The notes under the pieces are model-generated. The model was given only the letters and a program-made list of their open reading frames with translations, was not told the origin of the DNA and made no database searches. A stretch of DNA of 64,000 bases. It comes from a virus (Duplodnaviria; Heunggongvirae; Uroviricota; Caudoviricetes). The translations under genes and the position numbers were made by a program. Positions within the stretch are counted from its first letter, which is position 1, and each line of letters opens with the position of its first letter. Location of the stretch: IMG/VR virus record IMGVR_UViG_3300031088_000735; one strand, given 5' to 3'. This document shows positions 1 through 43,695 of this stretch, piece after piece.

Positions 1-189
1 GACATTTACGAAGACTTTTTCACTAATAATAAGGCTTTCAATTTTGAAACTGAAATCAATGAATTTGTTGTTAACTTTTTGAATGACTGGATTATCAACT
101 TTCATAAAGATCGCCCAGACATTTCATTTATTCCTGATGAAGTGTCGTTTAAAGATAAAGTGGAACTGTTTAAAATGATTGCGATTTAA
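1..189 (+). CDS. 3' end of a truncated hypothetical protein with the C-terminal M-tag (...KVELFKMIAI*)
   Basis: Frame 1 is open from base 1 to TAA at 187-189; translated by hand. Confidence 0.75.
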   Translation, partial: DIYEDFFTNNKAFNFETEINEFVVNFLNDWIINFHKDRPDISFIPDEVSFKDKVELFKMIAI

Positions 190-278
190 GCAGATTAATA
201 CTTTATCATTAATACCAACTTGTTGTTGATTAAAACTGTTAATATGTTAATATAATAGGCTCTTTGCAGGAGCTTATT

Positions 279-569
279 ATGTCTAACTATTTTGTAGAGC
301 TATTTAAGTATCATTCAAAACTCATCAACAAAAAAGTGGTTGTTGTATCTAATAAACATGTCGTTTTTGGAAAGCTCACAAGTTTCAAACAAGTCATCCA
401 CGGTGCAAAGCCAACATTTACGATTAAGTTTGAAAATAAAGATTGTGCTCTTTTTACCACTTCTGGTGTCATTATCCCTTACTATGATGGCGTAGAACAC
501 GATTTAAAACAAGATTTGAAATCAGTGTGTGAGCGATACCGTCTCGGTCCTTATTCGTTTACTCCTTAA
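279..569 (+). CDS. hypothetical protein, paralog of 27324..27584
   Basis: AGGAG SD before ATG 279; INKKVVVVSNKHVVFGKLTSFKQVIHGAKPTF resembles IGKKVSVVSKNNVSSGVLKSVSQVVYGVKPTY. Confidence 0.75.
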   Translation: MSNYFVELFKYHSKLINKKVVVVSNKHVVFGKLTSFKQVIHGAKPTFTIKFENKDCALFTTSGVIIPYYDGVEHDLKQDLKSVCERYRLGPYSFTP

Positions 570-616
570 TTGATTGAACTCTCAGACAGCTTCTGTTATA
601 CTACGGATCTATATTT

Positions 617-823
617 ATGGGAGATAGCATAATGGTTCAAGTATTTGAATTTGAAGGCGGCTGGGATGTGCCAGAAGAACGATCCAACAAAGATTTTAAA
701 GGTTTCGATGATCGTGATGTTTTTGGTGATGATCTCCCTACTCACAACATCAGTGGCCCCACTGCTGATGGTTACATGGAAATCGGTGGTAAGGTCTATG
801 ACATGAGTCGAACGCGGTCGTAG
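617..823 (+). CDS. small acidic hypothetical protein
   Basis: 68-aa ORF, no recognisable motif. Confidence 0.55.
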   Translation: MGDSIMVQVFEFEGGWDVPEERSNKDFKGFDDRDVFGDDLPTHNISGPTADGYMEIGGKVYDMSRTRS

Positions 824-893
824 TGTTGTTAATGGTAGAATTTATCAATAAAAGCCAGTAACTTATTTATTTTCAATTATTGAGGATACATTA

Positions 894-1379
894 ATGCGAA
901 TTCTAATTTTGATGGTCTTTTTGGTGAGTGCTTTGGGAACTTTTAAAATGTTCTCGGAAGGTAATGCAATTACAAGTCCACAGCCAAGGGAAGTAACACT
1001 TGTTGATACCAGTGTGAGCCAAACTTACCACGTTAGCCGCAAAGGTGATCGAACGTATAACGATCTAAATCAATGGGTGGTTACTGTAAAAGGTCACTTC
1101 ATTGACAAAAAGACTGGCACTACTTTTACTATGCTTATCCGCGATAAGTTGTTCTATGAATTTAAAGATGGTGTTGGTAAACCTATTCCATTGACCCTCA
1201 ATCTTCGTGCTGATTTGTTGGATGGCAACAATCTTGGGATGATAGCTTGGTTCTTGGGGTATTTTCTATTTTTTGTCAGTGGTGTTTCACTGGTTGCCTT
1301 TTTTGTCTATCCTAAAATGTATGAGCGAGTTTCATCTGATATCAATGAGACAATTGTTAAATTTGGGAAGACTGCTTAA
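894..1379 (+). CDS. two-TM membrane protein, member of a 4-copy paralog family
   Basis: GAGGA SD; hydrophobic N- and C-terminal segments flank VTLVDTSVS...KGHFIDKKTGTTFT..IRDKLFYEF, shared with 28724, 31327, 31813. Confidence 0.8.
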   Translation: MRILILMVFLVSALGTFKMFSEGNAITSPQPREVTLVDTSVSQTYHVSRKGDRTYNDLNQWVVTVKGHFIDKKTGTTFTMLIRDKLFYEFKDGVGKPIPLTLNLRADLLDGNNLGMIAWFLGYFLFFVSGVSLVAFFVYPKMYERVSSDINETIVKFGKTA

Positions 1380-1414
1380 AATTAAAGCCAATTTGATTGT
1401 TAAGTTGGCTTCTT

Positions 1415-2053
1415 TTAATACATTAACATTTCCATTATATCATTTGTTTCTTTTCCGCTGAGTATTTCAAAATCAACATAATTTTTAATATAATAAGCAA
1501 TATGTTGTTTATCTTTGAAATTGATGTTTTTAATGTCTAGTGTATTGCTTGACTCTACACTTAGTATTGTCCAATCGAAGTCTAATATTTTTGGGCCATT
1601 TGATTGTATATGAATATATTTGTCTTTAATAATCATGGTAAAACAATTTAATTCTTTAAAGACTAGTTTACAATATACGTTTTGTGTCATCATTTTTTCA
1701 TATTCTTCAATGCAACTATCAAGAAGCATGAGTATCCATCCATGATTTTGTATAGCCAGCGGGTTTATTTCTTCATCTTTTTTCAAAGGGAAATTCAGTC
1801 CCGGTAAATAATCTAAATACTCTTTTAACTTTTCAGCCTCATGGTCAAAAGTAAAATCAACTATGTGCTTTAAACTGCCACTTTCAGGTAGTAATTCTTG
1901 ATCTAACATAGCATTCAAAAAATAAAAATACCTCTCATTCCATATCTGAGAACTTCCCATAAATGCGATTTCATTTATTTCCCTTATAAAAGCCATTAAT
2001 ACAGCGATTTCTAATTCGTTTTTAAGTTCTTCTTTTATTTTATTTTCCATCAA
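1415..2053 (-). CDS. hypothetical protein with C-terminal M-tag (..DIMEMLMY*)
   Basis: 212-aa AT-rich ORF with GAGGA SD. Confidence 0.8.
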   Translation of the reverse strand: MMENKIKEELKNELEIAVLMAFIREINEIAFMGSSQIWNERYFYFLNAMLDQELLPESGSLKHIVDFTFDHEAEKLKEYLDYLPGLNFPLKKDEEINPLAIQNHGWILMLLDSCIEEYEKMMTQNVYCKLVFKELNCFTMIIKDKYIHIQSNGPKILDFDWTILSVESSNTLDIKNINFKDKQHIAYYIKNYVDFEILSGKETNDIMEMLMY

Positions 2054-5730: not shown

Positions 5731-6306
5731 TTGTTATTCTGCATCATTATTTGGAGTAACCATCAATTGAACAAACAAGATCACCTCACCTTTTTTTCAA
5801 GACTTCGTATTTTAGAAAAAATTGATACTATACATCCTATTGATATCAGTGGGTTGTATATAGATCTTTTATTTTTATATTCGAAATTGATTGAAAACAA
5901 CTTTGTCTTTGACGTTAAAACCGTTACTTATGAAGATTTGATTGAATTTGAGAAAGATTTTCCAAATAAAGTTGTCAAACCATTAAATAAAAGTTCAGTT
6001 CAAGCTCGTTTAATTTGGCTTAAAAAAATATATGCATTTGAACATGATGTAAAATCAGATTATGAAGGAAAGCCTGCATTGTTTTCAAACTCTGATTTGA
6101 GTTTGATTGTTACTGACGACAATATTTCCGTTAAAGTCTTCATTGATGGTAATTTGTTGCGTTATCATTCTTATAGTGTTGACGGCGTGGAATATCAGAT
6201 TGAAGACTCTATTTTGATGAAGCACTCTACTTTTTCACGTTTCATCTCGAATATTGTTGAGTATCATGCTTGCGAAAAATCTGTTCTGAAAATGGCATTA
6301 TATTGA
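5731..6306 (+). CDS. hypothetical protein with C-terminal M-tag (..SVLKMALY*); start may be TTG 5767
   Basis: AT-rich ORF; GGAG SD precedes TTG 5767. Confidence 0.7.
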   Translation: MLFCIIIWSNHQLNKQDHLTFFSRLRILEKIDTIHPIDISGLYIDLLFLYSKLIENNFVFDVKTVTYEDLIEFEKDFPNKVVKPLNKSSVQARLIWLKKIYAFEHDVKSDYEGKPALFSNSDLSLIVTDDNISVKVFIDGNLLRYHSYSVDGVEYQIEDSILMKHSTFSRFISNIVEYHACEKSVLKMALY

Positions 6307-6674: not shown

Positions 6675-8519
6675 ATGAATTTGAAAGAAAGTTTAAGAGC
6701 CATAGAGAAAGCTACTAGTCGTGTGGTTGATACAGGTTGGGATAGTGTTTATGGAGAACGTTTAAATTACAATGAAATGTACTTTATACCCCATTTTAAA
6801 AATAATAAAGCCAATAGAAGAATGTCACAAATACCTTTGTTGGCAGATACGATTGCTAAATTATCCAATTATGTTGAAACTATAAAAAATACTGATATTC
6901 ATGCATTGACAACAGTAGACGCAATTAATCTATATGGTTCACATGTATACCCGACTGAGATGGAAAGACAGAACGTTACTAAAAGAACATCTCTCGACTT
7001 TGAATTAAATCATGCATGGCTTGGTTTTTACTCGGCTGAACTTAATGGTTCTCGTGAATTTGATGACGACATGTCAGATGATCTCGAAGATCAAGTTATC
7101 GCCATTAATCGCATGGCTGAAAAACTTGAACAGCAACATATCAACATTAATAAGTTTTTAATGTTTAACTACACAGTGACTAATCAGTTAGCTATTTCAT
7201 TGCAACATGAAGATGATAGAGCTTACGTTGCGGAAGCCGCTATCAATTACATTACCCACAACCTTCCAGACATCGAAGATTTTAAATCTTTGTATGCAGA
7301 CTATGTGGCTGCGAATGACAAATTTTTAACTGATGTTAAAGCTGAACTTGTTAAAATCAACCCTGATATATTTGTTACTAATGCTGAATTGTTTATCTCA
7401 GCCTTAGAGAAGAGCACTGGTACTAATGCAGTTGAAGGCTTCTTGATTGAAAAAATGTTGACGGACGAGGCTGTTATTACCTCAGTTGATTTTACTGCAG
7501 GACAAGCTATTAATAAGGCTATTCTTTTTGATGATGCCAGTATTGCTTATAAACAAGATGGTCAATACCATACATTCAAAGACAACCAAAGTCTTGATAA
7601 CTTCATGTTTACGCTCAACCATAGTGCTCTTTCTTACATATTAAGAAAAAAGCCAACTACTATTCCTTTTTTCAAGGAAAAATTAATAGAAGATAAACAT
7701 TACGCTAACGCTATCAGTGCGGCTACATCGTTTATTGATAATTACACTGTTTTGAAACAATATAACTATGACCTCAATTCTTTCAAAGATAAGAGTTTTG
7801 AGGCTATTGATGACGAAATTAACCATGTTGTTGACAGAAATAAAATTAAACAATATGCATTTAGTATTCTTAGTTCTAAAAATAAACACTTATTTAATGA
7901 TGAAACAGAGTCTTATTTCAAAGCATTGTTTGACAACAATGTAACGACATCACAACTGCAAACGTTTGTAGGCAAAAAACTGGCTGCTTTGCATTCTAAC
8001 GAAGATGTTATTATGATGTTAAATGGAATTCGTAACCATTTCGATGGATTTACTCAGGAAGCGTTAACGTTGAAATTAGAATCTTTTGGTATTAAGAAAT
8101 TACATGATCAAGATAATGTGGTTACATTTGCTGTTGCTAATTACACTCAATGTGAAGCGTTAGGGTCAACTTCTTGGTGTATTGTTCGAGATCAAGACTA
8201 CTATGATCAGTATGTGACAGACCATCGTAATATCCAGTATATGATGTATGACTTTAATAAACCATCTACTGACATCAATTCTATGATTGGCTTCACTGTA
8301 GAGCGTTCTGGGGCTATTTATGCCGAACATTTGAAAAATGATGATGCGATTTATTCTCATAGCAAAGATGAACAATTGACCCATATACAAACCAACACTA
8401 TTTATCAAAACAGAAAGAACCATAAATTATCAGAAGAAACCCTATTCGCAATGGAAGAGTCTCTGGGCGTTCAGAATGTTGTTAAACCAACTAAACCTTT
8501 AAAAATGAGAACTATATGA
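6675..8519 (+). CDS. large hypothetical protein A1 (GxTSWCI domain, possibly PcfJ-like), basic tail ..KPLKMRTI*
   Basis: 614 aa; clear paralog of 11043..12875 (LRKKPTTI, FDNNVTTSQLQTFVGKK, LGxTSWCIVRD). Confidence 0.85.
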   Translation: MNLKESLRAIEKATSRVVDTGWDSVYGERLNYNEMYFIPHFKNNKANRRMSQIPLLADTIAKLSNYVETIKNTDIHALTTVDAINLYGSHVYPTEMERQNVTKRTSLDFELNHAWLGFYSAELNGSREFDDDMSDDLEDQVIAINRMAEKLEQQHININKFLMFNYTVTNQLAISLQHEDDRAYVAEAAINYITHNLPDIEDFKSLYADYVAANDKFLTDVKAELVKINPDIFVTNAELFISALEKSTGTNAVEGFLIEKMLTDEAVITSVDFTAGQAINKAILFDDASIAYKQDGQYHTFKDNQSLDNFMFTLNHSALSYILRKKPTTIPFFKEKLIEDKHYANAISAATSFIDNYTVLKQYNYDLNSFKDKSFEAIDDEINHVVDRNKIKQYAFSILSSKNKHLFNDETESYFKALFDNNVTTSQLQTFVGKKLAALHSNEDVIMMLNGIRNHFDGFTQEALTLKLESFGIKKLHDQDNVVTFAVANYTQCEALGSTSWCIVRDQDYYDQYVTDHRNIQYMMYDFNKPSTDINSMIGFTVERSGAIYAEHLKNDDAIYSHSKDEQLTHIQTNTIYQNRKNHKLSEETLFAMEESLGVQNVVKPTKPLKMRTI

Positions 8520-9952
8520 AAAAAGCAATGTCAGAAGATTTTTTAACTTTACTTGATGATTTCAAATTATCCAACAATATTACGGATACTAACTTTGACT
8601 ATTATGCAACCTTGAAATTCTGTAAATCTACATTTTTGAATGACTTTTATGATATTTCTCTTGTAAAAACAGACTCTCAACAATATCCTATTTTATTACA
8701 AATGAATGGTAAAGCACTTGTTTTTAAAATGAAAGATGCTAATTTTGCTGGCATTTCCGATGATGAAGTCAAGAATTTTGTACCTTTTTTAACAAATAAA
8801 GACTATTCTCATGTCAGTCATCTAAACACTATACTGAAAGAGAGCACATCTTTTAAATCGTTTGTTGATAATGTTAATTCTGTATTTGGTGAAGGCTTTG
8901 ACTTACATGCACTTGGTGGTGTTTCTAAAGACATCATGGCTTTTAAGGTTTCTAACACACTTAATACATTAATCAATAAATTAAAAGACGTATATATAAA
9001 AGATTATGAGATTAGCTATTTATTACAAGTATTAGAGGACGAATTGTCTTCTGGTATATTTGTTGGTCGTGGTATTGATGTCTCACAAATGTCACATGAT
9101 TTTAAACGTTATGTGAAGCCCAATTCGAATGAATTTTCAGGTGATCCAGAAACTTATTATGATGTTTTAATGGAAAAATATTATAAACACTTAGATCAAT
9201 ATTTTGATTTGTTTAAATTTCAGCAAACGTTAAAAACAGGTGTTATGCTTAATTCAAAAACGGATGATCAACTGTTAGACACAGCTTTGTTAAATGAATT
9301 TATTACTGTCGTTAAGGCGAGACAACCAACTTGGTTTCAGTCGTTTGATGAATCAATGATTCACTCAGTGACCGATGATAACACCATTAGAGCCGCTGGA
9401 ATACCTTTGATTGACAAGACTGCTGACTTTGATTTGATTAATCCTAGATTGTGTTTGGCAAGTGCTTATCCAACCAGTATAGATGGCTACACTAATGTTT
9501 CAGAAAGTTTTATGAAAGCAGATACCAACTCAGTCCATTTGTATGGCGATAATGTGTTCTTTAAACCTTATTACCATAATCTTATTATCAATGAAAAGGA
9601 AAATCTAAGGGTTTGCACTTATGTTCATTCTGAACTGGGACTGTCTTTAAGTGATGATATGAAATTCAGTTTCCTTTTACCTGTATTAGATTACTTAGAA
9701 AAAAACAAAATCATTCTTGATTTAGATGACAGCAATGAGTATTACTTAACTCTCTTGAATTATATAAAGAAAGAAGACCTATCAGCACTTATAAAAGAAA
9801 AATACCCTAATCTTATCTTTTTAAATTCTGACACAGACCTTAAGAAGTCTATTGAAATTAGCCATGCAACATCCTTCAAAGAAGCGTTGAAAATCTATAA
9901 GCAAGATGATAAACCAACTCCCAAAAACACTACATTAAAAAACGCCTTGTAA
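8516..9952 (+). CDS. hypothetical protein B1, translationally coupled to A1
   Basis: ATGA stop/start overlap; paralog of 12872..14278 (TDDNxIRAAGIPL, VHLYGDNVFFKxYYHNL). Confidence 0.85.
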   Translation: MKKAMSEDFLTLLDDFKLSNNITDTNFDYYATLKFCKSTFLNDFYDISLVKTDSQQYPILLQMNGKALVFKMKDANFAGISDDEVKNFVPFLTNKDYSHVSHLNTILKESTSFKSFVDNVNSVFGEGFDLHALGGVSKDIMAFKVSNTLNTLINKLKDVYIKDYEISYLLQVLEDELSSGIFVGRGIDVSQMSHDFKRYVKPNSNEFSGDPETYYDVLMEKYYKHLDQYFDLFKFQQTLKTGVMLNSKTDDQLLDTALLNEFITVVKARQPTWFQSFDESMIHSVTDDNTIRAAGIPLIDKTADFDLINPRLCLASAYPTSIDGYTNVSESFMKADTNSVHLYGDNVFFKPYYHNLIINEKENLRVCTYVHSELGLSLSDDMKFSFLLPVLDYLEKNKIILDLDDSNEYYLTLLNYIKKEDLSALIKEKYPNLIFLNSDTDLKKSIEISHATSFKEALKIYKQDDKPTPKNTTLKNAL

Positions 9953-10030
9953 GGTGTTTTTTTGTGGCTAACATTATTGTTTTATGATATAATATCAACA
10001 ATATTTTATTTATCTACAGGTGATGGTGTT

Positions 10031-10993
10031 ATGATTAACGACTATATCGAAAAGATTCAATATATTGCTGCTGATCGCAAGCGGGGTGATACCTTTCTTG
10101 TGGATAACGTCGTTTTTCGATTGCCACATCTATATCCTCGACAATTGGCAGATTACCGTGATAACCCATCTATGGTTATTGACGCATTTATTCAACCTAT
10201 TCTTGAAAGCAATCCTAGTGAATTTATAGTCGTTTCTGATTTTGAGAGCCATAATTCTGTTTATACGCTTTACACCGTTAAAACTGAGAACATTTCAAAA
10301 GTTTTTACTCAATTTGCTGATGAACAATTTAGAATGGCTCAACGAAATGATTTAATTGTTCGCACCGAGCTTTCTAATTTCTTTGAGATTTTTTTTGAAG
10401 AATTTTTTGTCGCTGACGATTTCAAAGAAAAGTTTTTAACTGACTTAAAGACAAAAAGTGTATCGACTGATTTTCGTGTTTCTGGATCTCATGCACCTAA
10501 TAGATTTATTGAACGGTCTAATTTGCATTTAGTTGACATTAATATTAAATTTACACCAGAACATGAAGCTTTTTTGCGAAAGATGTTGAATATTAAAACG
10601 ACATTCAAACTCTTATATCGTGGCTATGTCTCATTTAATGGCGACTTTACTGTTCGTGAGTTTAAATTGAAATTGTTTTCAGATAACGATCTTCATCGTG
10701 AACATCTTGAATACTATCGTTCATCACCAACATATGGTTTCATTAGGTCTACAAAAAAAGCAAATCCTTATTCGTATGAGCCAAATCCAAAAGTGTTTTT
10801 CACGCTTTTTACAAAAGAAGATTATAAATTTACCTTGTATAAACTTTTGAAGTTTCACAATGATTCTGACACACTTGAAAAATACACTACCATGTTTCCT
10901 GAACTGTATACACCATCAGCGTATGATTTTGCAAATCTATCTCTGGAAGAATGGGATACTCGTTTCATACTTCAAGACATGATTGATATTTAA
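10031..10993 (+). CDS. hypothetical protein with PE..SAYDF module and M-tag (..RFILQDMIDI*)
   Basis: AGGTG/GGTG SD before ATG 10031. Confidence 0.8.
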   Translation: MINDYIEKIQYIAADRKRGDTFLVDNVVFRLPHLYPRQLADYRDNPSMVIDAFIQPILESNPSEFIVVSDFESHNSVYTLYTVKTENISKVFTQFADEQFRMAQRNDLIVRTELSNFFEIFFEEFFVADDFKEKFLTDLKTKSVSTDFRVSGSHAPNRFIERSNLHLVDINIKFTPEHEAFLRKMLNIKTTFKLLYRGYVSFNGDFTVREFKLKLFSDNDLHREHLEYYRSSPTYGFIRSTKKANPYSYEPNPKVFFTLFTKEDYKFTLYKLLKFHNDSDTLEKYTTMFPELYTPSAYDFANLSLEEWDTRFILQDMIDI

Positions 10994-11042
10994 TAATTAT
11001 ATTTGTGTGGTATACTGTTAATATCTAATTACACTATACAAC

Positions 11043-12875
11043 ATGAATTTAAAAGACGGTTTAAGAAGTATTGAATCATTAAACAACATTGTTCACTATG
11101 AATCACTACATGGTGAAAATGATGTTCGTTTGAATTACAATGAGATGACGTTTATACCTTATCTCAGTAAGAACAAAGGAAACAAATACATTAGAAATAA
11201 AAATGCTCTTAAAGATGCTGTTGATACATTGGCTGGGTTCGTTTCTATTATTAAAGAAACCGATTTGAATACATTGACGACTATACCAGATGTTGTGAAA
11301 TTTTCAGCTCGTTTTTCAAGAGGTTTATTTGATCTTGATGGTATTTCTGCACACACTAAAACACAAGCAGAATTTAATGGTGCATGGATAGACTTTTATG
11401 CTTATGGTATTAAAACTGAAAATAAAAATCCACATATTATAAATAAAATTGAAGACCAACGTGAACAAATCAATCATGTTGGACAAGAATTAGATAAAAA
11501 ATACAAAGAACTTAGCAACTTTCTTTTGTTTCACTACACATTACTTCAACAACTACCAAAGTCTTTGTTACATGAAGAAGATCGTGCTTATGTCGTTAAA
11601 AGTATCAATACATACACTGAGCAAATGCCTTCTATTCAAGAATTGGCTTCATTGCAACAACAATATCAAGATTTAAACAAACAGTTTCTGGTTGATGTTA
11701 AACAGCATATTGTTGATATTGCTCCTGACACTTTTGTTTCAAAAGCTGACGCTTTCATATTGAAGGAACAAGAACACCAGACTAATAATACTGTTGAAAA
11801 CTTCTTGAATGCTAAACTGTTGGAAGAAGACGTAAAAGTTGCCATTGAATTCACGGCAGCTCAAAAAATTCAAAAAGTCTTTTTATTTGATGATAGGAGT
11901 ATCGCCTATAAAAGAAACAATGAGTATCATACGATTAAGGATTCGACTGCAATATCTATGTTTATTAATGAACTTCATCATGAAAGTTTATCATTTATCC
12001 TTAGAAAAAAACCAACGACAATTGCGTTCTTTCAAAATAAACTAAAAGAAGATGGTGGATACTCAAATGCCATTAAAGCAGCGACTTCTTTTGTTGAACA
12101 TTCACAAGTATTAAAACAATATAACTTCGATTTAAATACCTTAAAAGACAAAGGATTTGAAGCAATTGATGACACTATAAACAACTTGGTTTATAAGAAT
12201 AAAGTTAAACAGTTCGCTTTCAGTATTTTGAGTGCTAAATATAAACACCATTTCAACAGTGAAACTGAGCCTTATTTTAAAGATCTCTTTGACAACAATG
12301 TGACAACTTCTCAGTTGCAGACGTTTGTGGGCAAAAAAATCGCCGCTTTGAAATCAAATGAAGATGTCATCAAAATGATTAATGGCATGCTGGATCACTT
12401 TAATGGGTTTACACAAGAAGCCTTGTCTGAAAAACTTCAATCCTTGGGGATCGAGAAGATACATGATGCGAATAACGCTGTCAGTTTCGAAGTAACCACC
12501 TATGAGCAATGTAAGGCGTTAGGTACCACGTCTTGGTGTATTGTGCGTGATGAAGACTATTTTAATCAGTATGTGCATGAAAGAGGAAATCGCCAGTATA
12601 TCATCTATGACTTCAATAAATTATCGACAGACATTCAATCCATGATTGGTTTCACTGTAGAAGAAAATGGAGACATTTATGCTGAACACTGGAAAAACGA
12701 CGACTCTATTAGTCGTTACGGTAAATCAGACACCTTAACTAACATCCAGACTAATACAATTTATAATAACCAATCACGTCATTCTTTATCAGAAGAAAAG
12801 ATTGTTGAGATGGAAGACATTCTTAATATCAAAGATGTCAAAAAGAATAAACCTTTAAAAATGAGAGTGGCATGA
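11043..12875 (+). CDS. large hypothetical protein A2, basic tail ..KPLKMRVA*
   Basis: 610 aa; paralog of 6675..8519. Confidence 0.85.
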   Translation: MNLKDGLRSIESLNNIVHYESLHGENDVRLNYNEMTFIPYLSKNKGNKYIRNKNALKDAVDTLAGFVSIIKETDLNTLTTIPDVVKFSARFSRGLFDLDGISAHTKTQAEFNGAWIDFYAYGIKTENKNPHIINKIEDQREQINHVGQELDKKYKELSNFLLFHYTLLQQLPKSLLHEEDRAYVVKSINTYTEQMPSIQELASLQQQYQDLNKQFLVDVKQHIVDIAPDTFVSKADAFILKEQEHQTNNTVENFLNAKLLEEDVKVAIEFTAAQKIQKVFLFDDRSIAYKRNNEYHTIKDSTAISMFINELHHESLSFILRKKPTTIAFFQNKLKEDGGYSNAIKAATSFVEHSQVLKQYNFDLNTLKDKGFEAIDDTINNLVYKNKVKQFAFSILSAKYKHHFNSETEPYFKDLFDNNVTTSQLQTFVGKKIAALKSNEDVIKMINGMLDHFNGFTQEALSEKLQSLGIEKIHDANNAVSFEVTTYEQCKALGTTSWCIVRDEDYFNQYVHERGNRQYIIYDFNKLSTDIQSMIGFTVEENGDIYAEHWKNDDSISRYGKSDTLTNIQTNTIYNNQSRHSLSEEKIVEMEDILNIKDVKKNKPLKMRVA

Positions 12876-17148: not shown

Positions 17149-17964
17149 ATGCGGCCAGAAATAAGTGATTTATCAAGTGAAAATGAATGGCGTTTAATTA
17201 GTTCTGGCGTTAGTGATAATGACTACTTTATTTTATGTGATCGAATTGAACAAATTTTTAAAAACTTATTTAAACTTGATTACAATGTAAAAGAAATCAT
17301 AGAAAATAAAGAAATACCCCTATGTAAAAATGTTCTTTCTGAATATAAAACTTATGTCCCTTTTAAAACAGAATTATTTTCTGTTGGATTTGTATTCAAC
17401 ATGACAAAAGTAGACGAACTCTTTATTTTAGGCGATTGTATATTTTCTGTCACTGATTCATATTTATTGGATAAATTACCAATGGGTTCAGCCATCACTG
17501 AAAATGCTTATTGTGTATGTTTTTTTAATGATGACGAATTAATGAGTTATCAATCAACGTCTGTCACTTATCTCACCACTGTATCAAATCCTAAAAAATT
17601 CAGAGGATTTAATTATTATTACGTTAATTTAAGTTATACATATTATATCGATCATCTAGATAGAATGTCATTTCAACTAGAATATACTTATGAAGATGAT
17701 AATTTATTTTACAGTAAAGAGCCTTCGAAGCACTTTGTTTTATCTGAAAGTGTTGTTAGTGATCATATGTTATTAAAAATTCGACAACTTTATAAATTGC
17801 TTTCTTTTTATTCTAGTGGACTTGATCTGTCGCCTTTTTATTCATTAATAAATTATTCAAACATCAATGATGCAGTAGCCATGTACAATATATCTTTAAA
17901 TTTTATTCGTTCAGCTAATGATGAGCATGATAATCTTTTACTTTTAGATATGCTTAAAATTTGA
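17149..17964 (+). CDS. hypothetical protein with M-tag (..LLLLDMLKI*)
   Basis: GAGGTG SD; very AT-rich 271-aa ORF. Confidence 0.8.
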   Translation: MRPEISDLSSENEWRLISSGVSDNDYFILCDRIEQIFKNLFKLDYNVKEIIENKEIPLCKNVLSEYKTYVPFKTELFSVGFVFNMTKVDELFILGDCIFSVTDSYLLDKLPMGSAITENAYCVCFFNDDELMSYQSTSVTYLTTVSNPKKFRGFNYYYVNLSYTYYIDHLDRMSFQLEYTYEDDNLFYSKEPSKHFVLSESVVSDHMLLKIRQLYKLLSFYSSGLDLSPFYSLINYSNINDAVAMYNISLNFIRSANDEHDNLLLLDMLKI

Positions 17965-18574: not shown

Positions 18575-19876
18575 ATGAATCAAGAACTTTTTGTTGAAAA
18601 AATCATTAGAGATCCATTAATTTTATTGAGTGATCTTTCTGAATTAGGATTTAACCTGTATGACAATCGCTTAGGTCAATCTAATTATGAAACAGGAGTT
18701 AATCGTGTAAATTTTGAAGATCATAGAATTACTTCAGTTTTTGATTATGATAATGACCTTATTATAACTATATTTGAAAAAATATTTCCCGAAAAGGGTA
18801 AGTACACTGTTAAAAACTTCTTTTCTATTCTTAATTTTTATCAAGTAGTTTTTTCTAAAGATTGTTACTACGATGAAGAATGTCACATTGTATTTTTAAA
18901 AAATTATTTTAGCTTTAAAAGTCCCTTATTCAGTTTTAGCTTTGTTGATGGTGTTTTTGAAGAGATTAAATTGACTAATGAACTGTTTTTTAAATACAGA
19001 AATATTGAAAAAATAACGATAGACGCATTGTATGAATTAATTTTAAAAAACTTTAAATCTGCGTTTTACCAATATTTTAAAGATGACAACATTATTGTTG
19101 ATAATAATATTGTACATAAAATTATTAATGAAACTACATGGGAATATTATGAAAAAAATTTTTCTGATAAATCTTTTAAAATTATGGATGATTACACATT
19201 TAATGAAAGACTTCGTAACTACACCCATCCAATTAAAATAAACCACACTTCTGTAACACTAGAAAACATTCCATTAAAAACGTTGCTTGTTGGTGCTTTT
19301 GATGAAGATTTTAAAGATGGTGAATGCATAAATCAATTGGGATTTTTCAAGGATTTTGATTACTTTATAGAAGAGCATTACTTCTCTGAGATAAGCTTCA
19401 ATTCAAATGATCATTTTTTTGTTAAATATATTTTAAAAGATGTTTTGGATGAAATAGAACTTTCTTATTTAACTTCTGTATTCTCTTTACTTCAATTTTA
19501 TGATGAACTTTTTCTTAATAATTGTGCTACAAGAGATTTTAAAAGAAGATCAAATGCAAAATATTCTGATGATTTACAATACCTTATTGGTAAAAAAATT
19601 TCTATGCATAGGCGTAGTTATTCAGATATTGATCGATCACCTAGAGAAAATGATTATGCTTATCTGTTTATATTATCTAGTTTTGCTTTGTATTTAGGCA
19701 ATAAAAATTTAGAATTAAGCCTTCCTAACAATGAAAAAATAATTAAGGATAGTTTTATTGATATATATGATGAGTTATTAAAAATTGTAACTAAAAAAAT
19801 AAAAGAAGCTCTCAATGTTGAGTCTGATATTGTCAACGTTAATGATCTTCGATTATTAGAAATTATGCTATATTGA
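18575..19876 (+). CDS. hypothetical protein with M-tag-like end (..LRLLEIMLY*)
   Basis: 433-aa very AT-rich ORF. Confidence 0.8.
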   Translation: MNQELFVEKIIRDPLILLSDLSELGFNLYDNRLGQSNYETGVNRVNFEDHRITSVFDYDNDLIITIFEKIFPEKGKYTVKNFFSILNFYQVVFSKDCYYDEECHIVFLKNYFSFKSPLFSFSFVDGVFEEIKLTNELFFKYRNIEKITIDALYELILKNFKSAFYQYFKDDNIIVDNNIVHKIINETTWEYYEKNFSDKSFKIMDDYTFNERLRNYTHPIKINHTSVTLENIPLKTLLVGAFDEDFKDGECINQLGFFKDFDYFIEEHYFSEISFNSNDHFFVKYILKDVLDEIELSYLTSVFSLLQFYDELFLNNCATRDFKRRSNAKYSDDLQYLIGKKISMHRRSYSDIDRSPRENDYAYLFILSSFALYLGNKNLELSLPNNEKIIKDSFIDIYDELLKIVTKKIKEALNVESDIVNVNDLRLLEIMLY

Positions 19877-19942: not shown

Positions 19943-20632
19943 TTATACTAAAATCATATCAACCAATTCCAGCCTACTTTTGAAATCATCTGAATTGAAA
20001 TCGTAAGCTGAATCAATCGCTATCTCTGGCAAGGCTTCTTTCAGTAGTGGGTGGTCTTTATTAAATTTCATATTTAACAAAAACAACTCATTTTCTTCGT
20101 CCATCATCATATCTTCAGTTTTCTTTACTGTCATTGATGTTATCTTTTTTGTTTGTATGTTGTAATCACTTTCATTTAAATCAAGAGCGACTAATGCAAA
20201 TTTTGCATCGTATACCATTTTGATAGAACCACGTTCAAATCGAGAGCCATTGATACGGTAATTAAACGAAAAAACAATATCACTAATGTTTTGATTGTTG
20301 TCGAAATTGATCACAAAATTCCATTCGTTAGCTTGTCTGTTTCCGCCTAGAAGAAAGTTGAATGGGTTTCCAACCTTTTTAAGTGTTATGGAAGAAGGTG
20401 GTATTCTTTTTCCTTTGGCTGGACTACCAAATTTGAATGAGAACTGATCGTCAAATTGTGTATCTCTGACCACAAGACAATCTGTAAGATGATGAGCCAG
20501 TGCTTGATCGAGTTTAAAATGATTGATAAGTCGAATTGTGTGATGACACACCTTTGCTTTTACTTTCTTAAATTCGTCCTTCTCACCTTTGTTATCAAAA
20601 AAACTACCTCTTTGTTTCATTGTTTTAGACAT
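19943..20632 (-). CDS. hypothetical protein with PE..SAYDF module and M-tag (..RLELVDMILV*)
   Basis: Full-length paralog of 25074..25760. Confidence 0.85.
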   Translation of the reverse strand: MSKTMKQRGSFFDNKGEKDEFKKVKAKVCHHTIRLINHFKLDQALAHHLTDCLVVRDTQFDDQFSFKFGSPAKGKRIPPSSITLKKVGNPFNFLLGGNRQANEWNFVINFDNNQNISDIVFSFNYRINGSRFERGSIKMVYDAKFALVALDLNESDYNIQTKKITSMTVKKTEDMMMDEENELFLLNMKFNKDHPLLKEALPEIAIDSAYDFNSDDFKSRLELVDMILV

Positions 20633-25073: not shown

Positions 25074-25760
25074 ATGTCTAATTCCGTTAGAAAAGAAATT
25101 GAAATTAACCAACAACAGAACACCTTAAAAAATCAGAAATCAAAAATTGTTGATAACGCCATTAAAGTTATTGAAAAATTTAACTTGTCTCCAAAACTTT
25201 CTTCGCACCTATCTTTTTCGCTTGTTGATAACAATACTTATTTCGATGATTCCTTTTCTTTGTTGATTAACAATTATACTGATACCAATGGTATTGGTGG
25301 TGACAGTGAGCTTATGTTTAAAAACATCGAAAATCCTTTAAATTTCAAGTTGGGGTATAATCAAGAAGCCAAAAAACCAGCTCATATTAAAATTAACTTT
25401 GATGAAGAACAAAATATTAAAAACATTGTCTTCTTTTTTCACTTTAACGTCAGAAATAACAGATTCGATACTACTGAGATCCATTTCACCTTTGATAGTG
25501 CTTTTAAATTAGTTGATTATAAGTATAATTCTATTGTTTTTAATCCTAGTACAAGGTCACTATTTAGAAATGAAATTCTTAAAGATGAGAAGACATCCCT
25601 TGACTTAGAAGATGAAGTGTTTTTCATTAATATGAAACTCAATAAACAAAATGATGTTCTGACTGATTTGTTGCCTGAACTCTTCATTCCATCTGCTTAT
25701 GATTTTAACAGTCTTGATTTTCAATCTCGTTTTGAAATGATTGACATGGTTATTTATTAA
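25074..25760 (+). CDS. hypothetical protein with PE..SAYDF module and M-tag (..RFEMIDMVIY*)
   Basis: AAGGT SD before ATG 25074; paralog of 19943..20632. Confidence 0.85.
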   Translation: MSNSVRKEIEINQQQNTLKNQKSKIVDNAIKVIEKFNLSPKLSSHLSFSLVDNNTYFDDSFSLLINNYTDTNGIGGDSELMFKNIENPLNFKLGYNQEAKKPAHIKINFDEEQNIKNIVFFFHFNVRNNRFDTTEIHFTFDSAFKLVDYKYNSIVFNPSTRSLFRNEILKDEKTSLDLEDEVFFINMKLNKQNDVLTDLLPELFIPSAYDFNSLDFQSRFEMIDMVIY

Positions 25761-26093: not shown

Positions 26094-26801
26094 ATGTTCA
26101 GAACTGATAACTTAATGAAAACTGGTGAGCGAGAACTCGATTATCTCTGCCGTCTAGACGTGACAGAACTGCCATCTTCGAAACCATCGAAAGCTGCCAG
26201 TAAGCTTATGGTGGATTTTATTCTTCGGAATAAGCTGAGTCTCAATGGTCAAAAAGGCAATAAATATGTAGCGTTTCGAGAACATGACCAAGATGTTTCA
26301 TTTATCGGCGGTTTTGGTTCTCGCCATCAAATTGCACACATTATTATTGATCAAGATTTCAATGTTAAAAAACATGCAGAAGACTTACGAATATATTTGG
26401 CAACACTGTATGATATGCTTGATTTTGATGTCAATTTGAATGAAGAATGTGTCATCTTTTCATTGAAAGACGGTTATACCAAGCTGGAAGATGTCGAATA
26501 CGTTGAATTTGTCTATAATGCTTACCTTGCTACGGACAAGGGGTATTATCCAGAGTCAAAAATCATTGTTCGTCATTATCTTGATGGTGTTGAACACACA
26601 CCAGCATTATCCATGATTGATCGTGAAGATATTGACATGGATCTTGTTATCACATTAAATACATCGTTAACGAATTTTAATGAGATTCTTCCATTTTTTA
26701 TTGAAATTCACAAAGAATCTTTTGGTCGGAAGCTAGGTGTTGATGTCTCAAATTTTAATGATGATACCAACCTTCTTATTCAAATGATGTTGGTGACCTA
26801 A
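26094..26801 (+). CDS. hypothetical protein with M-tag-like end (..NLLIQMMLVT*)
   Basis: GAGG SD; 235 aa. Confidence 0.8.
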   Translation: MFRTDNLMKTGERELDYLCRLDVTELPSSKPSKAASKLMVDFILRNKLSLNGQKGNKYVAFREHDQDVSFIGGFGSRHQIAHIIIDQDFNVKKHAEDLRIYLATLYDMLDFDVNLNEECVIFSLKDGYTKLEDVEYVEFVYNAYLATDKGYYPESKIIVRHYLDGVEHTPALSMIDREDIDMDLVITLNTSLTNFNEILPFFIEIHKESFGRKLGVDVSNFNDDTNLLIQMMLVT

Positions 26802-27320: not shown

Positions 27321-27323
27321 ATC

Positions 27324-27584: not shown

Positions 27585-27598
27585 ATATTCCAGAATAG

Positions 27599-27612
27599 GA
27601 GGCTTCGGCCTC
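27599..27612. terminator. terminator GAGGCTTCGGCCTC
   Basis: Exact copy. Confidence 0.85.
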
Positions 27613-28723: not shown

Positions 28724-29215
28724 ATGAAAGAGTTAGCCTATTTCAAAAAAAGCATCCTTATTTTCTCAACGCTCTTGGTATTGTGTGGCTTGGGGATGTG
28801 GGGATCTTATGAATTGCGTCAGTTTGGTGAATACCGAACGCATAAAGAAACCCGCCATGCTCGCATGATTGATGTTTTTGATCGGCATAGCCATGTCAAA
28901 GGTCATGATTATTATCACACCTATGGTTATTTTGTGGATCGTGAGACAGGCAAGCATTTTACTGACAGCATTACTGAAATTACGTTTAATCAGTTTAAGC
29001 GTGATGGTAATAAAGGTATTGAAACCAGTTGGCCTTACAGTATCGACAAAATTGAACAAACGTCTATCGGAGAATTTGCCTTAGTTGGAGCGTTCCTTGG
29101 ATTCTTCTTCTGTATGTTTTTTGGAATCTTTAACCTGTCGCAAATCATTATGGCATTCTCTAAATACCGAGAACATCAAGAACATCAAATTGCTCTCAAC
29201 AAAAAAAGCCCTTAG
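28724..29215 (+). CDS. two-TM membrane protein (894 family)
   Basis: TM-(YGYFVDRETGKHFTDSI)-TM. Confidence 0.8.
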   Translation: MKELAYFKKSILIFSTLLVLCGLGMWGSYELRQFGEYRTHKETRHARMIDVFDRHSHVKGHDYYHTYGYFVDRETGKHFTDSITEITFNQFKRDGNKGIETSWPYSIDKIEQTSIGEFALVGAFLGFFFCMFFGIFNLSQIIMAFSKYREHQEHQIALNKKSP

Positions 29216-31326: not shown

Positions 31327-31755
31327 ATGAATAAAATAACTCCGATGTTTTTAACATTTGCTATCTTGGCATTGTTTGGTTTGAGCTATTTTTCTTCCAA
31401 TCAGGCTAACGATAGACAAATTGATAGAACTCGCAATTTTGTCCTATTTGAAACCAAAATTGTTGAAAAACGACATAACAAAATACCTTACAATGTCATT
31501 GAAGGTCAATTCTTTGACATTTTCAGTAATCGAACCTTTACTGCAGAAATTGATAATGATTTGCAAGAAGCTTTCTTGAAAGCTGGCAAAGCTATTGATG
31601 TTCGACGCTCCTTTAATTTGGATACCATTGAAAGGACACCTTCTCTTGGAGCTGCTTATAGAATGGTTAGTGGTTTCTTGCTTTTGTTGGGTTTTTATAC
31701 TTTGATTGATGGATTATTTATCAATCGAAAACTGATGATCAAGCCTCAATATTGA
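31327..31755 (+). CDS. two-TM membrane protein (894 family)
   Basis: TM-(IEGQFFDIFSNRTFTAEIDNDL)-TM. Confidence 0.8.
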   Translation: MNKITPMFLTFAILALFGLSYFSSNQANDRQIDRTRNFVLFETKIVEKRHNKIPYNVIEGQFFDIFSNRTFTAEIDNDLQEAFLKAGKAIDVRRSFNLDTIERTPSLGAAYRMVSGFLLLLGFYTLIDGLFINRKLMIKPQY

Positions 31756-31812: not shown

Positions 31813-32304
31813 ATGAAAATTAATAAAATTGTTGTTTTATTGCTAACATGTGTCATTATCTCAGCATTAATTTCCAGTTACCTGATGTTTCAGGAGTCTT
31901 CTATCCGAACCGCGAAGACGTTGCGGGATGTCACCTTGTATGACACGTCCGTCTCTACTTATCAAGCAAAAAGTAACACCATTGTTAACACAAATGGTTA
32001 TTTTTTGGACAAAGCTACAAACCTCAAATTTACAGCGTCTATTCAAGATAAGCTCTATCGTGAGTTTCAAGAAGGTAAAAATAAACCTATTGATATTCAG
32101 CGGGAATTTAGCCTTGATAATATTGAAAGTAAATCAGATGGTTTGATTATGAAGCTTTGTGCCACTCTATTGCTTGTTATGCTGGTGGGTGGTTTAGGTT
32201 GTGTTGTTATTATTAATCTGCAAGCAAGGCGTGTTGCGATAATAGAAAAACGTGTTGGTGCAGTAGAAAATAAATATAACTCCCGTAATGAAGGCACTTT
32301 TTAA
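31813..32304 (+). CDS. two-TM membrane protein (894 family)
   Basis: VTLYDTSVS..NGYFLDKATNLKFTASIQDKLYREF. Confidence 0.8.
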   Translation: MKINKIVVLLLTCVIISALISSYLMFQESSIRTAKTLRDVTLYDTSVSTYQAKSNTIVNTNGYFLDKATNLKFTASIQDKLYREFQEGKNKPIDIQREFSLDNIESKSDGLIMKLCATLLLVMLVGGLGCVVIINLQARRVAIIEKRVGAVENKYNSRNEGTF

Positions 32305-37303: not shown

Positions 37304-37424
37304 GGTCATCACAAGTTAGGGGAAACCATAACTTAATGGTTGTAAAAAAGATGTGGATTATTTTAAGATTCTCATAATCTGTATCGAGGGGCGTAGGAGA
37401 AATTTTACGCTTTGTCTGTTCCAC

Positions 37425-37497
37425 AGAGGTGTATATCAGTCGGTAGATAATCTCTCTAGCAGAGAGAAGGTCGCGGGTTCAAGTCCCGTCACTGATG
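37425..37497 (+). tRNA. tRNA-like gene, anticodon AGC (Ala), irregular acceptor stem
   Basis: D-stem TATC/GATA with GG in loop; anticodon stem TCTCT/AGAGA, loop CT-AGC-AG; T-arm GCGGG-TTCAAGT-CCCGT; acceptor has two purine mismatches; no encoded CCA. Confidence 0.7.
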
Positions 37498-37525
37498 TGG
37501 ATTTAGGCCGAGAGGTCAGGACGTA

Positions 37526-37599
37526 TACGGTGTATATCAGCGGCCTAGATAATTTCTCTAATCGAGAAAAGGACGTAGGTTCAAATCCTACCACTGTAT
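37526..37599 (+). tRNA. tRNA-like gene, anticodon AAT (Ile), unusual C37
   Basis: Acceptor TACGGTG/CACTGTA; D-stem TATC/GATA; anticodon stem TTTCT/AGAAA, loop CT-AAT-CG; T-arm GTAGG-TTCAAAT-CCTAC; no encoded CCA. Confidence 0.75.
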
Positions 37600-37614
37600 T
37601 GCAAGAACCAAAAA

Positions 37615-41173: not shown

Positions 41174-41200
41174 AACAACTAATTAATACAGGATAAAAAA

Positions 41201-41467
41201 ATGAAACTCATTAATGCTCTCAATCGTCTTGGGAAAACCAACGAAAAACGCTTGCTTTCTAAAGCAAACGGACTTTGCAATCGTTACCGTAATAACATTC
41301 ATCTTCGCAAGCCGCTGGTGTCGTATGACCTTGCTGAAACCACCAGCCAAATCATGAACGACATTCTTGGGTCTGTTGCGGCTATGCCTTCTGGCCCTGC
41401 AAAAGTCTCTGAACTGAAAGACTTGATCGGTATTGCTCAGCGAACCATCAAAAAAGATCTAAAGTAG
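41201..41467 (+). CDS. small basic hypothetical protein
   Basis: AGGA SD. Confidence 0.7.
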   Translation: MKLINALNRLGKTNEKRLLSKANGLCNRYRNNIHLRKPLVSYDLAETTSQIMNDILGSVAAMPSGPAKVSELKDLIGIAQRTIKKDLK

Positions 41468-41527
41468 TAGTCATTTCTTAGTTTTTTTGGTATAATGGGT
41501 TCACTTAATCAATAGGATGAACCCAAA

Positions 41528-41956
41528 ATGACGACCCATGCAGAAATCCTGAAATCTTTGGCTCAAAATGCAATCAACCGTATTGAATCATCAAAACGAG
41601 TTCTTTGCAGTATGCCCGGTGTTGTGGATACCTCCATCATTGATATGTTTTATGATCTCAAGATCGGCTCCATTCAAAACTTTTTGAAAGCCCTGTCTTT
41701 TTCCAACGAGATTGATGTTGAACTCTGCGAACTTCTCGATAAAGCTGATTACACCGTGACTGCAGAAGCAATTAACGAAGAAGTGAAAGAATTTGCTGTT
41801 GCCTTCAATCAACTTCATATGTTTATCATCAGCACGCCGGTAGATCCAGCAAACCCAGCAGAAGATAAAATGAAAGTGTATCACGACCAGCACTGGGCCA
41901 TGATTGAAGCGAAGTCTGACTTTTATGAACTGTATAACAAGGTTCGTTTCCACTAA
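41528..41956 (+). CDS. hypothetical protein
   Basis: TGGTATAAT promoter, AGGA SD. Confidence 0.8.
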   Translation: MTTHAEILKSLAQNAINRIESSKRVLCSMPGVVDTSIIDMFYDLKIGSIQNFLKALSFSNEIDVELCELLDKADYTVTAEAINEEVKEFAVAFNQLHMFIISTPVDPANPAEDKMKVYHDQHWAMIEAKSDFYELYNKVRFH

Positions 41957-42029
41957 CGGTTGTTGAATTCTTGTTAAAAAAAGACCACCTTCTGGTGGTT
42001 TTTTTTACCTTTTGTTTTGTTATTGATGT

Positions 42030-42860
42030 TTAAATTTCTACCATATCATGAATTAATACCATGTCACTGGCATTTGTGTAATCTGTTCCATATTCATCAT
42101 TATAACAGGCTACAAAACTCTCTTCTAATTGTTTAATGTTCATATTGTTTGTAGCATGCACACTGACTGTTTCATATTTAATTTGTGTTGTCGTTTTTTT
42201 TCTTAATACAATTCCATTATTTGAAATTGAGAATAATACATTGCCAAAGTTTAAGAAAATATAATAGCCAGACTCATTTTTGTACAAATTTGCTGCAACA
42301 TGTCCAAATTTATGGTTTTTGTTCTGGTCATCTTCATAGAATGAATCTAAATACGAAAAGGCTTTAAATAAAGTATCATTTTTAAATAAAAGTTTATCAA
42401 CTATTTTTAAATTTTCATAGAATCCTTTCTTATCGTCAATCGTTGAGAAACGTGACAAGAAATATTTATTATTTTCGAATTTATTATTAATGATTTCATT
42501 AAGAATATTACAAACAGCACTATCGTTTGTACATTCGTTGATAGTAAATTCATGGTTTATATGATCTTGTAAACCGTCGAAAGCAGATTCTTGATAATAG
42601 AACGGGTATCCTTTTTTAAAACTAATAGTTAATGTTGTTCTGTTTATTTCCAGATTGATTTCAGTGGTGTAGTCACCGTTATATATATTGATAAGATCAT
42701 CAGCGACAATGTTTAAAATCCTTTTTACTTTTTCTGCTTTTTCTGGCAGATAAAGGACGTTTTCAATCCGCGATGTATCTACATTTTTTAGTTCGCTGAC
42801 TTTAATACTTTTTGTCATCCAAGCATCTATTACCAGTGGGGCATTAATTGTTGTGTTCAT
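42030..42860 (-). CDS. hypothetical protein with M-tag (..MVLIHDMVEI*), tandem paralog
   Basis: ILNIVADDLINIYNGDY..ISFKKGYPF shared with the upstream gene. Confidence 0.85.
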   Translation of the reverse strand: MNTTINAPLVIDAWMTKSIKVSELKNVDTSRIENVLYLPEKAEKVKRILNIVADDLINIYNGDYTTEINLEINRTTLTISFKKGYPFYYQESAFDGLQDHINHEFTINECTNDSAVCNILNEIINNKFENNKYFLSRFSTIDDKKGFYENLKIVDKLLFKNDTLFKAFSYLDSFYEDDQNKNHKFGHVAANLYKNESGYYIFLNFGNVLFSISNNGIVLRKKTTTQIKYETVSVHATNNMNIKQLEESFVACYNDEYGTDYTNASDMVLIHDMVEI

Positions 42861-42861
42861 T

Positions 42862-43695
42862 TTAAATCTCCATCATGTCGTGAACCAACACAAGATCTTT
42901 TGTGTCAGTGTAGTTTGTTTCATATATTTTGTTATATAAATCAATGAAGCTGTTTTTAACATCTTGAAAGCACACTTCTGGTGTATTGAACACTTTTCGA
43001 AGTTTTGATTGTTCTTCTACTCTTGATGACCGCATTAACATACCTTTTTCAGTCACCACCATATTGATTAGTCCGTATTCCAAAGTAATACTTGGGCTAC
43101 TTCCATTTTGGATAACGATTCTTAAACTGTTAATCTTATGGTAATGATAATTGGTTTCAATTGGATATGGAAAATAAATTGATTTCATAAAAGAACATGC
43201 TTTAACGATTTTTGGCTCATTAAAAAACAATTGGTCAAGATAGCTTAGGTATCTATACAGGGTTTGAGCTTCTGGCAATACTGAATATGGTTTGGCATAC
43301 AGCCAATTGTTTGAACTTTCTTCAACATGGTGAGTAATTTCATCATCTATTGTTTGATGAATGCTCGCATCGTCCTTACAGCGTTCATAATAGAACTCAT
43401 ACTTCAGATTTTCAACAGTGCCATCCTGTTCGATGAAAATGAATGGATAGGATTTTTGAACAGTAATCTTTAGCGAGAAATCATCCACTTCTATTTTCAT
43501 GTGAGTTTCATAATCACCACCATTAATCGTGATCAGATCATCCGCAAAGATTTTCAAAATATTGACAATGGTATCGTTATATTGTTTAGCGAATTTTTCT
43601 CTATTGAATAAGGCTAATTCAATGTTTTTCAATCGGCTGACTGATAAGCTTCCTTCGGTTACATTCCGTATTTGTAATGGGTTATATAGGTTCAT
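42862..43695 (-). CDS. hypothetical protein with M-tag (..LVLVHDMMEI*), tandem paralog
   Basis: GAGG SD before ATG 43695; ILKIFADDLITINGGDY..ITVQKSYPF. Confidence 0.85.
   Translation of the reverse strand: MNLYNPLQIRNVTEGSLSVSRLKNIELALFNREKFAKQYNDTIVNILKIFADDLITINGGDYETHMKIEVDDFSLKITVQKSYPFIFIEQDGTVENLKYEFYYERCKDDASIHQTIDDEITHHVEESSNNWLYAKPYSVLPEAQTLYRYLSYLDQLFFNEPKIVKACSFMKSIYFPYPIETNYHYHKINSLRIVIQNGSSPSITLEYGLINMVVTEKGMLMRSSRVEEQSKLRKVFNTPEVCFQDVKNSFIDLYNKIYETNYTDTKDLVLVHDMMEI

Follow-up and report, generated by a model that had tools for sequence, protein, structure and literature searches.

We analysed a stretch of 64,000 nucleotides (hereafter the window) from the IMG/VR virus record IMGVR_UViG_3300031088_000735, in which eleven genes encode proteins with a common C-terminal tail, characterized by a methionine that most often stands four residues from the end (position -4, the last residue being -1). 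A first reading, made from the sequence alone, had proposed that this tail is a tag by which one receptor handles a library of largely unrelated proteins. All eleven C-terminal peptides that it listed were recovered directly 5′ of a stop codon and on both strands (seven carriers on + and four on -), the coordinates given there for the + strand carriers being gene starts and not ends. The carriers are the following.

1..189, + strand: 3′ end of a tagged gene, 62 amino acids (aa), cut by the window edge; ends ..VELFKMIAI, then the stop.
1415..2053, - strand: tagged gene, 211-212 aa, in a family of its own; ends ..NDIMEMLMY.
5731..6306, + strand: tagged open reading frame (ORF), 191 aa from a TTG (start uncertain), in a family of its own; ends ..SVLKMALY.
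10031..10993, + strand: tagged gene, 320 aa, frame open from 9962, SAYDF family; ends ..PSAYDF..RFILQDMIDI.
17149..17964, + strand: tagged gene, 271 aa, in a family of its own; ends ..HDNLLLLDMLKI.
18575..19876, + strand: tagged gene, 433 aa, variant with Met at -3; ends ..NDLRLLEIMLY.
19943..20632, - strand: tagged gene, 229 aa, SAYDF family, 37% identical to its paralogue 25074; ends ..SAYDFNSDDFKSRLELVDMILV.
25074..25760, + strand: tagged gene, 228 aa, frame open from 25011, SAYDF family; ends ..SRFEMIDMVIY.
26094..26801, + strand: tagged gene, 235 aa, variant with one extra residue; ends ..TNLLIQMMLVT.
42030..42860, - strand: tagged gene, 276 aa, 28% identical to the paralogue directly upstream; ends ..ASDMVLIHDMVEI.
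42862..43695, - strand: tagged gene, 277 aa, frame open to 43761, running directly into 42030-42860; ends ..TKDLVLVHDMMEI.

With the tails removed, pairwise BLAST and single-sequence HHalign confirmed the two paralogue pairs that had been proposed, 19943/25074 and 42030/42862. One more link between bodies was detected by BLAST and HHalign, a 46-aa terminal module common to 10031 and 25074. Pfam searches with the eleven carriers returned chance-level matches only, with nothing above that level for 1415..2053. ESM Atlas look-ups of three window proteins gave no usable hits, low-confidence models or no model; the model of 17149 is of low confidence, and its structural neighbours are beta-rich.

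The strict form of the tail, [DEKQ]M[LIVMA].[IVY]$, matches 9 of the 893 stop-terminated segments of the window, all nine being among the eleven carriers. The excess over shuffled termini, a check proposed with the sequence-only reading, is large: 7 of the 98 ATG-called window genes carry the strict form where 0.05 are expected (about 100 times chance; Poisson P about 2e-13), and this expectation was reached in two ways, from the frequency of the motif at internal positions and from shuffling of the last 15 residues. The strict form was found in none of 3,769 ORFs (100 aa or longer) from unrelated bacterial loci totalling 1.1 Mb, originally fetched for another purpose, and in none of the ORFs of a T4 stretch (0/28) or of a 642-kb phage stretch (0/63). 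Met at -4 reaches 12% in the window versus 1.6% of control ORFs.

The tail is conserved as a peptide, not as DNA. Its codons vary synonymously between genes (GAT/GAC, ATT/ATA, CTT/TTA/CTG) and nothing common lies downstream of the stops; hence it is not supplied by a repeated DNA element, and such an origin is ruled out. Stop-codon recoding, which would produce false termini, is also ruled out: TAA, TGA and TAG all end tagged genes, as they do neighbouring ones, and the nine called window carriers stop at TAA or TGA.

The tail extends well beyond the window. An alignment search with the terminal module of the 25074 family identified relatives on two JGI metagenome contigs (678 kb and 1.54 Mb) as well as on three IMG/VR records of 193, 152 and 290 kb, classed as ‘provirus’ by IMG/VR. 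These three records (G001 to G003, G003 being the one of 290 kb), which are fragments of larger genomes, were taken whole with simple gene calls. Met at -4 is encoded by 59 of the 286 called genes in G001, 42 of 235 in G002 and 46 of 466 in G003, and nearly all of these genes show the wider tail pattern. On a 1.84-Mb ENA contig, 8-9 of the 21 genes around one family member bear the tail. Overall, the tail-bearing share of genes in the relatives is 10-40%, and 142 carriers were counted in about 700 kb of the lineage.

For the SAYDF family, a profile search of 1.84 billion representatives retrieved 141 clusters (50% identity); in every one of these the representative matches at its C-terminal end or a few residues off it, and 83% have Met at -4. 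The members sampled came from Logan, ENA and JGI assemblies, and none of them from NCBI genomes. The tagged family has no relative in the GTDB species genomes, where the M17 peptidase of the lineage has no close match either. In addition, the window has no megablast match among the INPHARED phage records, protein 42033 gave no tblastn match, and a word-indexed search with the tail region returned known orthologues only.

A family-weighted logo shows that the tail spans 12 residues and is therefore longer than the consensus first described. Position -11 is Asp in 45% of cases and otherwise Asn or Ser, -9 is Leu, Ile or Val, -7 is Leu, Val or Ile, and -6 is hydrophobic. It is followed by Asp, Glu, Lys or Gln at -5, Met at -4 (99%), a hydrophobic residue at -3 and, at -1, Ile (65%), then Tyr, Val, Leu or Cys. 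The Asp at -11 is likely a helix cap. Upstream of -12, the families have in common an excess of acidic residues and nothing else that is conserved, and a longer upstream module, h-[GN]-h-[DE] (h, hydrophobic), was rejected, its enrichment being only weak.

Anchoring of the tail was measured with a position-specific scoring matrix (PSSM) of the last 12 residues. At a score of at least 12, this matrix matches 111 of 1,087 C-termini versus 7 of 182,019 internal positions, i.e., about 2,600 times more often at the exact C-terminus. Several of the seven internal matches are one-extra-residue variants, placed one residue from the end, and the highest of them is the window protein 26094, offset by one residue. 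The stop codon lies exactly three residues after Met across 54 families, the one-extra-residue variants being a handful. The sequence-only reading had described 26094 and 18575 as looser matches. Both do fall outside the strict consensus, but they are derived variants of a tail with Met at -4. Orthologues of 26094 end in ..LIQMMDV or ..LIQMIDI, so that the window copy has one extra residue; the orthologue of 18575 in L001 has the same end as the window protein, and an HMM-level (hidden Markov model) homologue of 401 aa in G001 ends in ..LEMSNY, with Met at -4.

The tail is also better conserved than the proteins that carry it. Among tagged orthologues of G001 and G002, identity is 0.92 over the last 12 residues versus 0.80 over the body, and among untagged orthologues of the same pair it is 0.83 versus 0.84. 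In the orthologues of 25074 (55-91% identity), the last 35 residues are nearly unchanged and are the most conserved part, while the body varies. These comparisons show a tail selected as a peptide, fixed to the free C-terminus and better conserved than the body, and the PSSM result bears out the earlier claim of a peptide element at the free C-terminus.

Carrier bodies diverge fast, and their repertoire turns over rapidly: among the reciprocal-best orthologues of the window and G003, 19 are untagged and none is tagged. The truncated gene 1..189 is linked by HMM to two tagged G003 proteins of 253-255 aa, and 10031 has a 320-aa relative in G003. Carriers often stand in tandem arrays, one of which, in G001, comprises 13 copies that are 20-38% identical.

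Taken alone, the bodies of the 142 carriers fall into 61 families by BLAST and 54 by HMM. The description of these bodies as largely unrelated thus holds at the level of sequence, but it is not supported as a description of mixed cargo, given their lack of domains, narrow size range and similar build. Pfam recognized no domain in 100 carriers (best E-value 0.003), and there is no sign that the tail was grafted onto other proteins; the idea of an unrelated cargo library is not sustained by these data. The same search on 150 untagged neighbours in G003 gave 41 families, including RNA ligase, NUDIX, M17 peptidase, Na/H exchanger and TnpB. Carriers have a median length of 251 aa, 80% of them being within 200-345 aa, and are mildly acidic, with bodies rich in Phe, Tyr and Asn. 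Membrane-like segments are predicted in 8% of carriers versus 27% of untagged proteins, and signal-like sequences in 4% versus 15%. Only 12 untagged homologues of tagged bodies were found, most of which are Met-to-Ile variants, one-extra-residue variants or truncations. Among the carriers examined, the tail never occurs on a protein of a recognizable other family. The tail is therefore co-inherited with each body and is not shuffled between bodies.

AlphaFold models were considered for two of the 54 families, SAYDF and family 0, whose mutual HHalign probability is about 1%. The SAYDF model consists of helices (residues 2-52), seven strands (61-169) and helices (178-227), and its tail has a predicted local distance difference test score (pLDDT) of about 50. 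The family-0 model (pLDDT 90) has a helix (13-31), eight strands (43-152) and helices (164-247). Hence both models show the same order of elements, a helical start, 7-8 antiparallel strands and C-terminal helices. They also pick the same weak structural neighbours: 3u1w, 6o38, 4fr9, actin capping protein and one 265-aa cluster of the Atlas. Neither model had a convincing match in the fold libraries searched, namely the PDB (by Foldseek), VIA-align wide, BFVD, AlphaFold DB clusters and the ESM Atlas (best Z 6.1; best template modelling score 0.38; no E-value reaching 0.001).

The explanation that we favour, with moderate confidence, is that the carriers form a lineage-specific hypervariable family of soluble proteins, made of diverged paralogues of one build, in which the tail is a constant element that docks to one shared partner. 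The carriers would be diverged paralogues, or belong to a few superfamilies, with an N-terminal helix, an antiparallel sheet of 7-8 strands and C-terminal helices. The tail would plug variable, probably target-binding bodies into the shared partner, for which a hub protein, a protease or unfoldase, and a translocation or packaging machine are candidates. Should docking prove to be its role, the tail offers a way into experiments on hundreds of opaque proteins and points to the hub or machine behind the arms-race repertoire of a giant element.

Several observations weigh against this explanation. Common descent is unsupported by sequence: HHalign of the 22 multi-member family profiles, which are shallow, gave a single link, at 95%, with every other pair under 10%. 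The two predicted structures appear to be of similar plan, which is not a proven common fold, and a crude secondary-structure profile based on hydrophobic periodicity and propensity did not separate tagged from untagged proteins. As read from the logo, the hydrophobic positions of the tail go round the whole helix and leave no single clean face. In the family-0 model, the tail helix is confidently placed (pLDDT 82-94), which fits an intramolecular role as well as docking. Finally, no partner of the tail was found in about 700 kb of the lineage. The single element-encoded receptor of the sequence-only reading has accordingly gained no candidate there, as nothing identified in it is a receptor, secretion system, capsid or protease adaptor, and the family overviews of window and G003 genes list no secretion, capsid, clamp or unfoldase family.

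A modular address tag, by which unrelated cargo would be delivered to one machine that reads the free C-terminus (for packaging or ejection, as a secretion coupling ATPase or for import into a compartment), is in our judgement rather unlikely. The exact C-terminal anchoring, the acidic linker before the tail, the scarcity of signal peptides and membrane segments, the 54 sequence families and the fast turnover of the repertoire would all suit such a tag, as would the low pLDDT of the SAYDF tail, expected of a flexible end. However, carriers devoid of any known domain are unlike known sets of effectors or cargo, their size is uniform and two of their families share a build. The tail, inherited with its body, is never seen on recognizable enzymes or other folds. 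As regards the machine, Terminase_6N had no match in the 635 kb of G001 to G003, themselves fragments, and the Pfam and PHROG families listed for the window and 150 G003 proteins include no capsid, portal or secretion ATPase. The corresponding picture on the scale of the genome, in which a phage-like replicon of about 1.9 Mb gives a tenth to a third of its genes, over long stretches, to one C-terminally addressed library, with a single machine reading the Met(-4) tail and delivering or deploying the members, is likewise improbable; were it true, the library would represent a new system of protein sorting or recruitment in the bacterial and phage world.

It is equally doubtful that the carriers share one hyper-diverged fold whose last helix is just a structural part of its own C-terminal helical bundle, with neither partner nor addressing. 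The same order of elements in two families, the uniform size and composition and the constant inheritance of the tail with its body are consistent with such a helix, and the placement of the family-0 tail within a confident helical region keeps it under consideration. An intramolecular role is nevertheless made less likely by three features. The stop stays fixed three residues after Met in all 54 families, which a packing helix would not need; the Met is invariant, which is unusual for a purely structural position; and no core segment is as well conserved as the tail, the core regions having diverged beyond recognition. Even as a structural helix only, the tail would define a large new protein family with a simple annotation signature.

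Binding to a sliding clamp is far less probable. The tail would then work as in T4 and RB69 and hold many proteins on a clamp of the phage type or one like PCNA. The T4 clamp partners include gp43, gp33 and gp55; the sequences of gp43 and gp55 have SLDFLF or SLDFLY at or near their ends. The resemblance to the tag is closer in RB69, where the DNA polymerase (gp43) ends in ..KKASLFDMF plus two residues, with Leu at -7, Phe at -6, Asp at -5, Met at -4 and Phe at -3, than for the T4 peptide SLDFLF(G). The C-terminal peptide of the RB69 polymerase reportedly binds the sliding clamp, a result ascribed to Shamoo and Steitz in 1999. Against a clamp, no carrier shows a domain of nucleic-acid enzymes or transcription factors, the few T4 clamp partners fall far short of 10-40% of genes, and the last residue is mostly Ile, not Phe. 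The C-domain of the gp45 clamp (PF09116) had no match in the fragments G001 to G003.

A C-terminal degron, which would mark proteins for timed removal by ClpXP, Tsp or an HtrA-like protease or unfoldase, is very unlikely. In its favour are the apolar end anchored at the free carboxylate, the Trypsin_2 peptidases encoded in the window and G003, and the acceptance by PDZ-type readers of a hydrophobic-x-hydrophobic end such as that of the tail. Against it, this end is Met-h-x-[I/Y/V/L/C], unlike the Ala-Ala type, the Trypsin_2 genes are short, at roughly 190-200 aa, and the Pfam families listed for the window and G003 include no PDZ family. A constitutive degron, so strongly conserved, on a fifth of genes is also hard to explain.

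The replicon is treated here as an uncultivated, low-GC, giant phage-like replicon or a very divergent cell; its type does not change the analysis of the tail. Expression signals are bacterial-type, with Shine-Dalgarno sites before 47 of 98 window starts versus a background of 8% and intrinsic terminators visible after several genes. Phage-like traits are the short genes (about 630 bp each), hardly any of which matches Pfam, and the presence of a T4-type RNA ligase, MazG, NUDIX and endolysin; in addition, a 614-aa window protein contains a domain common to ‘uncultured phage’ genomes of 635-642 kb. Related contigs of 1.54, 1.84, 1.86 and 1.92 Mb, and the presence of gatCAB, nrdDG and htpX/lemA between tagged genes, are unlike a simple phage. 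The Pfam and PHROG matches listed for the window and G003 include neither a capsid nor a terminase family. The largest phage described has 841 kb (bioRxiv 10.1101/2025.01.14.633092); if this replicon is a phage, it is more than twice as large. The sequence is present in phyllosphere, soil, surface and food-production metagenomes, as well as in runs labelled with several coded organisms, and no RNA run is among the sequencing runs listed as holding it.

The tRNA gene content is phage-like as well. G003 (290 kb; L085-L099) has 35 scattered tRNA genes, including 11 tRNA-Leu(TAA), 6 tRNA(CAT), 4 tRNA-Arg(TCT), two suppressor-like tRNA(CTA), the A34 anticodons Val-AAC and Ser-AGA, and two tRNAs with odd anticodon loops. 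In the window, two adjacent tRNA-like genes (37424-37600) have A34 anticodons unusual for bacteria, Ala(AGC) and Ile(AAT); Rfam accepts the first only.

Some neighbours of the carriers are themselves duplicated or variable. At window positions 6675-14278, two copies of a duplicated gene pair (614 + 478 aa and 610 + 468 aa; 51% and 40% identical) flank the tagged gene 10031. The 614-aa protein matches the phage genomes LR745206 and LR756502 (635-642 kb) over residues 468-590, and the 614- and 610-aa proteins end in ..KPLKMR[TV][IA], that is with Met at -4 and without the rest of the tag. Window 17149-18421 is a variable island beside conserved genes: in L001 (226-1904), the tagged gene 17149 is replaced by a 173-aa WHH/colicin-DNase gene followed by a 157-aa gene, possibly the immunity gene of the nuclease. 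Four untagged paralogues of about 140-165 aa, 26-33% identical, are found at 894-1379, 28724-29215, 31327-31755 and 31813-32304. On the - strand, 29241-31106 encodes a protein of 621 aa whose repeats are Ig-like, PKD-like and carboxypeptidase-regulatory-like; it yields all the ‘virion structural’ and ‘tail’ PHROG matches of the window, which are therefore probably due only to Ig-like domains. A shared C-terminal motif of another kind, ..LR[DE]xK[LI]NxLL, is present on arrays of 90-230-aa proteins in an unrelated 642-kb uncultured phage (LR756502.1; L078), for example at 8796-10172, 25016-25824, 27321-27599 and 30188-30526. Common C-terminal ends on arrays of paralogues may recur among very large phages.

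C-terminal docking and sorting peptides are known as a kind; what is new here is the consensus, the strict anchoring and the scale. The motif and the family are absent from Pfam, and a literature search found no paper on the motif. The near-invariant Met at -4, anchoring to the carboxylate, occurrence in more than 50 sequence families and presence on 10-40% of local genes form a set of properties without known precedent. Degrons such as those of ssrA, ClpXP and Tsp also rely on recognition of an apolar free C-terminus; unlike the tail, their consensus ends in Ala-Ala, and they occur on few proteins and not as a conserved feature of families. The cargo-loading peptides of encapsulins and the encapsulation peptides of microcompartments resemble the tail in being terminal elements, of 10-18 or so residues; they follow a polar linker and bring proteins to a common shell. 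As to a flexible linker before the tail, the two models diverge, with a pLDDT of about 50 in the tail region of the SAYDF model and of 82-94 in that of family 0. Their carriers are few, recognizable enzymes encoded beside the shell gene, in contrast to the domain-less proteins that make up 10-40% of local genes here, and none of the Pfam and PHROG matches listed for the window and G003 is to a capsid-like or shell family.

Closer in scale are the effectors of Dot/Icm (type IVB) systems, which number hundreds, evolve fast, lack recognizable relatives and occupy about 10% of a genome. Their signal lies in the last 20-30 residues and includes acidic residues, as does the region upstream of the tail with its acidic excess. 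However, it has no fixed consensus, whereas the tail has Met at -4 in 99% of cases, and the effectors vary in size and often contain eukaryote-like domains; the Pfam families listed for the window and 150 G003 proteins include none of Dot/Icm genes. The clamp peptides of RB69 and T4 gp43, gp33 and gp55 show how different proteins can be brought to one hub by a short motif, hydrophobic and acidic, at their very C-terminal end. Their carriers are few and have DNA or RNA functions, in contrast to the hundreds of domain-less, mostly Ile-ended proteins described here. For the docking explanation that we favour, F-box, SOCS-box and poxvirus PRANC proteins provide a working analogy. These belong to eukaryotic ubiquitin-ligase systems, have modules of at least 40 aa and are related to the carriers neither in sequence nor in fold. 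Like the carriers as we tentatively picture them, they form large, diversifying families of paralogues in which a short, constant terminal module docks to a shared machine.

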